From positions 12,154,001-12,218,000 of the forward strand of contig CM075993.1 in assembly GCA_038087875.1 (NCBI GenBank): a stretch of 64,000 nucleotides of DNA, written 5' to 3'. Under the pieces are notes generated by a model, which worked only from the letters and a program-made list of their open reading frames with translations, searched no databases and was not told the DNA's origin. The DNA comes from Malacoraja senta (Eukaryota). The first letter of the stretch is position 1. The number at the start of each line of letters is the position of its first letter. Made by a program: the position numbers and the translations under genes. Below are positions 32,409 through 32,593 of the stretch, one piece after another.

Positions 32409-32593
32409 CTTCAGGACGCACCGCGGGCGAGGCAGAGAGACAGAGAGACAGCGCGCAGCAGAGAGGAGACAGGGCGGGCGACAGGCAGCCAGGTGGAGAA
32501 GAGTCAGAGACGTGAGAGAGGGAGAGAGAGAGAGAGAGAGAGAGAGAAGCAGAGAGTTTAGCAAAGCAGAGATCCGTCCGCCCGCCGCGATAC

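Follow-up and report, generated by a model that had tools for sequence, protein, structure and literature searches.

The stretch of DNA analysed here, referred to as the window, comprises 64,000 nt of contig CM075993.1 of the skate Malacoraja senta. Its minus strand carries four exons of a tropomyosin gene, which is likely of TPM1 type judging from exon 2b, exon 1a, and the presence of an exon 2a. The exons and two of the introns are arranged as follows.

33197..33310, minus strand: coding part of exon 1a, 38 codons, from translation
32720..33196, minus strand: intron 1a-2a, 477 nt
32594..32719, minus strand: exon 2a, 126 nt, open frame, donor AAG/GTATCG
32409..32593, minus strand: intron 2a-2b, 185 nt, with a single AG
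32283..32408, minus strand: exon 2b, 126 nt with an open frame, between acceptor AAG and donor GAC/GTGAGT
27387..27517, minus strand: exon 1b, 131 nt as far as the donor, with the frame off by one base

By eye, exon 1a is identical to the human TPM1 record P0132 at 37 of 38 residues and to the TPM4 record P0234 at 34 of 38. Between exons 1a and 1b lie two tandem 42-codon exons, in phase with each other and alike at 76 of 126 nt, the first resembling smooth-muscle exon 2a and the second exon 2b, as expected of a 2a/2b pair. The top PDB matches of exon 2a are smooth-muscle alpha-tropomyosin structures (3u1a/3u1c, E 1e-8, 25/41 identical), and those of exon 2b are tropomyosin alpha-1 (E 2e-16). 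The acceptor of exon 2a has a weak pyrimidine tract, with 57% pyrimidine over 30 nt. Exon 1b lies ~4.8 kb downstream of exon 2b and scores alike against TPM3 and Tpm1.9 (33.8 and 32.6 bits), so that alone it does not separate TPM1 from TPM3. Its frame shift, near position 27410 and ~50 nt from a 200-N gap, is probably an assembly error; otherwise exon 1b would be a dead short-isoform exon. The window was searched for motifs of exons 3-9 and for neighbouring genes, and neither turned up.

The promoter region above exon 1a (33600-33480, minus strand) contains CCAAAAAAGT and CCCATATACGG motifs, candidate elements which we take to be of the CArG/TATA type. Elsewhere (5-712 on the minus strand and 5733-6647 on the plus strand) the window contains repeats, namely a transposase fragment, presumably of the Tc1-like family given its motifs, and many CR1-like LINE fragments whose best matches are cartilaginous-fish records. 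The best named matches of the LINE reverse transcriptase are to stingray (76% and 71%), chimaera (65-69%), and catshark (61%, and 55% for another record), compared with 45-59% for turtles and birds; this one repeat points to a likely cartilaginous fish, perhaps a ray. Of 24 sequencing runs listed for the window, 22 contain part of it; X1 is the sole run sharing over half of its words (0.83), possibly as the source of the assembly, and the small shares elsewhere carry no evidential weight.

Exons 2 and 3 (2a/2b) of rat alpha-tropomyosin, described by Smith and Nadal-Ginard in 1989, are reportedly the textbook case of steric exclusion. The rat exon 3 branch point, GGCUAAC, lies at -175 and 41 nt from the exon 2 donor (PMC1431707, PMC10570038). 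The initial annotation had correctly described this site as far from the acceptor and too near the donor; the distance of ~42 nt that it gave is replaced by the printed value. The steric limit is placed at ~50 nt, with splicing of MINX70 abolished at 46 nt and assembly on E1A abolished at 35 nt (PMC6692369). The same steric exclusion is found in a different gene, OGDH, where the mapped distant branch points of exons 4a/4b lie 25-46 nt from the donor and are kept from bony fish to human (PMC7969005); supplement figure S7C of the same paper covers the TPM1 2a/2b tracts in orthologues. In human, 57 mutually exclusive clusters (9%) are put down to potential steric interference by the criterion applied here, a donor-branch distance of <50 nt (PMC5740500). 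These are predictions for human only, and they indicate that the class is not rare. Exon 2a/2b alternatives are described in axolotl (PMC4431041), mouse (PMC4020292), and rat (PMC8419188). No paper on intron 2a-2b of sharks or rays was found in the openly accessible literature, and subscription papers or figure S7C of PMC7969005 may already treat the topic.

Within intron 2a-2b of the window, positions are counted from the donor (+) or from exon 2b (-), and the elements are as follows.

32556..32563, minus strand: putative distant branch site TGCTAAAC, with A 32558 (+36, -150) the most likely branch point
32514..32556, minus strand: pyrimidine tract, 43 nt, 98% C/T, taking in the CT repeat; counterpart of rat P3
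32512..32516, minus strand: alternative branch candidate CTCAC, A at 32513 (+81), poor U2 pairing
32503..32507, minus strand: alternative branch candidate CTGAC, A at 32504 (+90), good U2 pairing, 9-nt pyrimidine run behind it
32412..32493, minus strand: adenosine-free stretch before the acceptor, 82 nt, without a conventional branch site and without a CAC cluster

On the minus strand (32593-32409) the intron starts with GT and ends with AAG, and its sole AG is the exon 2b acceptor, which bears out the claim of the initial annotation that these 185 nt contain no other. The AG-free zone before the acceptor is 183 nt long, where at least 100 nt was taken as the threshold. The earlier coordinates of GCTAAAC (32562-32556) are likewise right: its adenosines lie at +35, +36, and +37 (32559-32557), equivalent to -151 to -149 from exon 2b. 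The long (CT)n tract described directly behind this motif is 98% pyrimidine from +38 to +80, with an uninterrupted 36-nt run at +45 to +80, and the two alternatives that had been named, CTCAC and CTGAC, are both present. The intron has adenosines at +3, 17, 21, 35, 36, 37, 81, 90, 100, 183, and 184, and none from +101 to +182. Any A-branch must therefore be distant, at least 86 nt from the acceptor. The arrangement is that of a distant branch point, with a branch motif and adjacent tract at the 5' end of the AG-free zone and no candidate A near the acceptor.

AG-to-AG gaps of at least 180 nt are few in the window (4/4440 on the minus strand, 1/4614 on the plus strand). Given the A-poor composition of the intron, with ten interior adenosines, the absence of AG is in itself no rarity (shuffle P 0.10). 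The unusual feature is the depletion of A and its order, rather than the absence of AG by itself. When the joint layout is defined as yTRA, followed by 30 nt of at least 90% pyrimidine and then 100 nt without AG, it occurs twice on the two strands of the window, in intron 2a-2b and in a 1.1-kb pyrimidine repeat. This repeat (19205-18097, minus strand) lies in the intron below exon 1b and is AG-free and 94% pyrimidine. A branch-like motif occurs in it at 18653, with no exon found to follow.

The branch-site consensus, which needs T at -2, served as the yardstick for the candidates. Among the three adenosines of GCTAAAC only A+36 has this T, and the intron as a whole offers three such candidates, +36 (TGCTAAA), +81 (CTCTCAC), and +90 (CTCTGAC). 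For +36, each of the five consensus positions upstream of the branch A pairs, and the sequence behind it is 97% pyrimidine, against 77% behind +81 and +90. Rough estimates for the U2 duplex are -3.6 kcal/mol for +36, +1.0 for +81, and -3.4 for +90. The +90 site is thus a fair rival of +36 on U2 pairing but loses on the tract. As measured to these predicted sites, the donor is 36 nt from the best candidate and 81 and 90 nt from the alternatives. The predicted motif is weaker than the rat site, as it has A instead of a pyrimidine at +1. Single-base errors are possible in this assembly, since the frame of exon 1b slips by one base next to a gap, and the third A of the branch motif could be such an error without moving the site.

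The comparison with rat Tpm1 concerns what is likely the same gene, and the same exon pair. Both introns are short, carry a GCTAA core near the donor with a long CU tract directly behind it, and are AG-free from there to the acceptor. A rat primer listed in PMC10570038 has a GC-rich start, then GCTAAC, then pyrimidines, and the window follows the same order, GC-rich start included, with GCTAAAC. The rat P3 pyrimidine tract is described in PMC3643581. The two differ in the donor distance (36 nt, predicted, in the window versus 41 nt, mapped, in rat), in the acceptor distance (-150 versus -175), in the A instead of C at motif +1, and in the AAG acceptor of the window.

A cross-species comparison was possible through the protein database. 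Among proteins P0121-P0243, gene calls that run through purine-poor introns keep the length of the intron and the position of the branch site in their translation, which makes read-through gene calls a source of cross-species intron data. The exon 2b search matched 372 proteins, and the comparison draws on the 120 listed. Records were usable if the intron was read through with the 2a donor visible, which left 17 of the 120; the first rule gave 16 of them, and a wider rule added P0170. The 103 dropped comprised 25 with exon 2b at the start or joined to exon 1a and 78 without a visible 2a donor. P0243, an exon 2a match, terminates inside the intron with a stop codon spanning +31 to +33, which is compatible with a branch motif, and it was left out of the count. 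Judged by their 2a peptides, the usable records are mammal-like, bird-like, and fish-like, one being a named whale record and none known to be from a cartilaginous fish, and the readings come from translations, in one frame per record. The bird-like records resemble a structure that we take to be from chicken.

Among the 120 listed, the intron of the 17 usable records measures 144-243 nt, and in all 17 a branch-compatible dipeptide places an A at +23 to +41, in 15 of them at +32 to +37. The dipeptide is L-T in 12, for which the DNA is always yTnAC, and [SAPT]-N in five, which corresponds to CTAAY only where T is the third base. Behind the dipeptide the translation is rich in F, L, and S, as expected from a pyrimidine tract, and bird-like records in two different frames both give +35. 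Shuffle P values per record are 0.09-0.27, and their product over eight similarity groups is 4e-6, with the range of +20 to +50 fixed post hoc. The values of the window (185 nt, +36) fall inside both ranges of these listed records. Two gene models, P0125 (rodent) and P0185 (bichir, partial 2a), connect all or part of 2a directly to 2b and are read here as probable prediction artefacts.

Intron 2a-2b of the skate likely keeps the two exons mutually exclusive through the steric mechanism already known, its predicted branch point lying 36 nt from the donor. The earlier proposal that the same mechanism operates as in rat is supported by the match in layout and by the spacing, read indirectly, in all 17 usable records among those listed, and the lock is likely an orthologue of the known mechanism, an expected extension of a known case rather than a new mechanism. 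By analogy with rat, U2AF and U2 would be recruited at the tract and at branch A 32558, and the acceptor would be found by scanning ~150 nt to the first AG. The 2a donor, 36 nt upstream and so under the ~50-nt limit, would be unable to assemble a spliceosome with this branch site, and exon 2a could therefore not be joined to exon 2b. Exon 1a, >600 nt upstream, could use the site. Under this scheme 1a-2b would be the default and 1a-2a-3 the product when exon 2b is repressed. Nonsense-mediated decay was considered as a safeguard and rejected, as both exons are 126 nt and double inclusion of 2a and 2b stays in frame.

It is improbable that the lock leaks, with CUGAC at +90 or CUCAC at +81 acting as branch point for splicing from the 2a donor, to yield an in-frame 2a+2b product and a tropomyosin 42 residues longer. 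Such a product would be readable, as neither exon contains a stop, and the +90 site is a full yUnAy with U2 pairing near the level of +36, followed by CUCUUCUCC. The use of several branch points is also common in introns with long AG-free zones, and mapping in MBNL1 exon 8 did not bear out the predicted strong distant site, long tract notwithstanding (PMC2991248). However, only the 9-nt pyrimidine run stands behind +90, and the count of downstream yTnAy motifs in the intron is at chance level (2 seen against a shuffle mean of 1.75, P 0.56). A downstream L-T site is present in the mammal-like record P0150 too, yet mammals exclude. In rat, mutating the GGCUAAC site together with a cryptic site at -182, both near the donor, abolishes exon 3 splicing, and in three other exons with long AG exclusion zones the 5'-most site beside the tract mattered, while mutation of downstream high-scoring candidates was without effect (PMC1431707).

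The chance is smaller still that RNA structure, or a protein repressing the 2a donor, is the main cause of exclusion, with the spacing secondary. Spacing may not be the whole cause, since in OGDH a greater donor-branch distance released the donor in some cases but not in all (PMC7969005). Folded alone, the intron pairs nt 1-22 with nt 153-176 (duplex P 0.007-0.02), but the whole-intron z is only -1.64 and the probability of this long helix falls to 0 with at least 30 nt of exon flank, where enforcing it costs 5.6-51 kcal/mol. The long-range helix was rejected as the main mechanism. With flanks, a small predicted hairpin (32609-32579, minus strand, -13.3 kcal/mol) holds AG/GUA of the exon 2a donor in its loop, pairs +4 to +6, and may weaken this donor. 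Across vertebrates it is the spacing that recurs and not the sequence of the arms.

That exon 2a is a leftover hardly used in the skate, with the layout serving exon 2b only, would fit its weak acceptor tract, the lack of an upstream CAC cluster to repress 2b, and protein searches that found no record with skate exon 2a (22 candidates among longer proteins, none scored; 596 pattern matches in a metagenome scan, none confirmed; six matches among 50% representatives, none recognisably cartilaginous-fish), but is most unlikely given the exact length, open frame, and canonical splice sites that the exon keeps, its identity to smooth-muscle tropomyosin, the weak splice sites of exon 2 in rat as well (PMC10570038), and the likely collapse of isoforms differing in exon 2 alone in databases clustered at 90% or 50%.

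Whereas the steric arrangement resembles that of rat, the elements that could switch it in smooth muscle are placed differently. Two features of the window are relevant here.

32482..32489, minus strand: GCTGCCTG, 8 nt shared with a rat primer read as covering the U (UGC) element; a weak, post hoc match
32153..32252, minus strand: CAC cluster downstream of exon 2b, 12 CAC, with TGCATG at 32217-32212; candidate RBPMS/RBFOX sites

The downstream CAC cluster, which is partly a CA repeat, has a density found in 0.2% of windows (shuffle P 0.007), and TGCATG is presumably an RBFOX motif. Upstream of 2b, a tandem CAC cluster was not found: the intron holds two CAC and no CAC-N1-12-CAC pair. In rat, nine CAC motifs upstream of exon 3 are needed for repression by RBPMS, which activates from downstream (PMC6613909), and CAC clusters lie on both sides of the rat exon (PMC10570038). 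The placement in the window is thus opposite to what RBPMS repression requires in rat. In all 17 usable records among the 120 listed, the last 27 codons before exon 2b contain 3-14 A-obligate residues and at least one His, compared with none in the window; the His evidence on CAC is indirect, as His is encoded by CAC or CAT. The rat switch also involves MBNL and PTB, with a CU-rich PTB tract at the branch site and YGCY clusters on either side. In the window a CU-rich tract is present at the predicted branch site, and YGCY is present in the intron at a frequency not above that of shuffles (7 versus 8.5, P 0.94). The match to GCTGCCTG has a shuffle P of 0.03. It is possible, if rather doubtful, that the steric lock has been kept since the jawed-vertebrate ancestor while the smooth-muscle switch is wired differently in cartilaginous fish. 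If so, the lock would predate RBPMS repression of exon 2b or be separable from it.

The proposal that the lock predates the split between cartilaginous and bony fish follows from finding a rat-like layout in a cartilaginous fish, and on this comparison of sequences the skate likely has the same well-known lock, which would be as old as the jawed vertebrates. Deep conservation of the same arrangement has already been published for OGDH. If the reading is true, the textbook steric lock of alpha-tropomyosin would be dated to the jawed-vertebrate ancestor, and the skate gene, with its 36-nt spacing and no upstream CAC cluster, would provide a natural variant for parting the lock from tissue-specific regulation.
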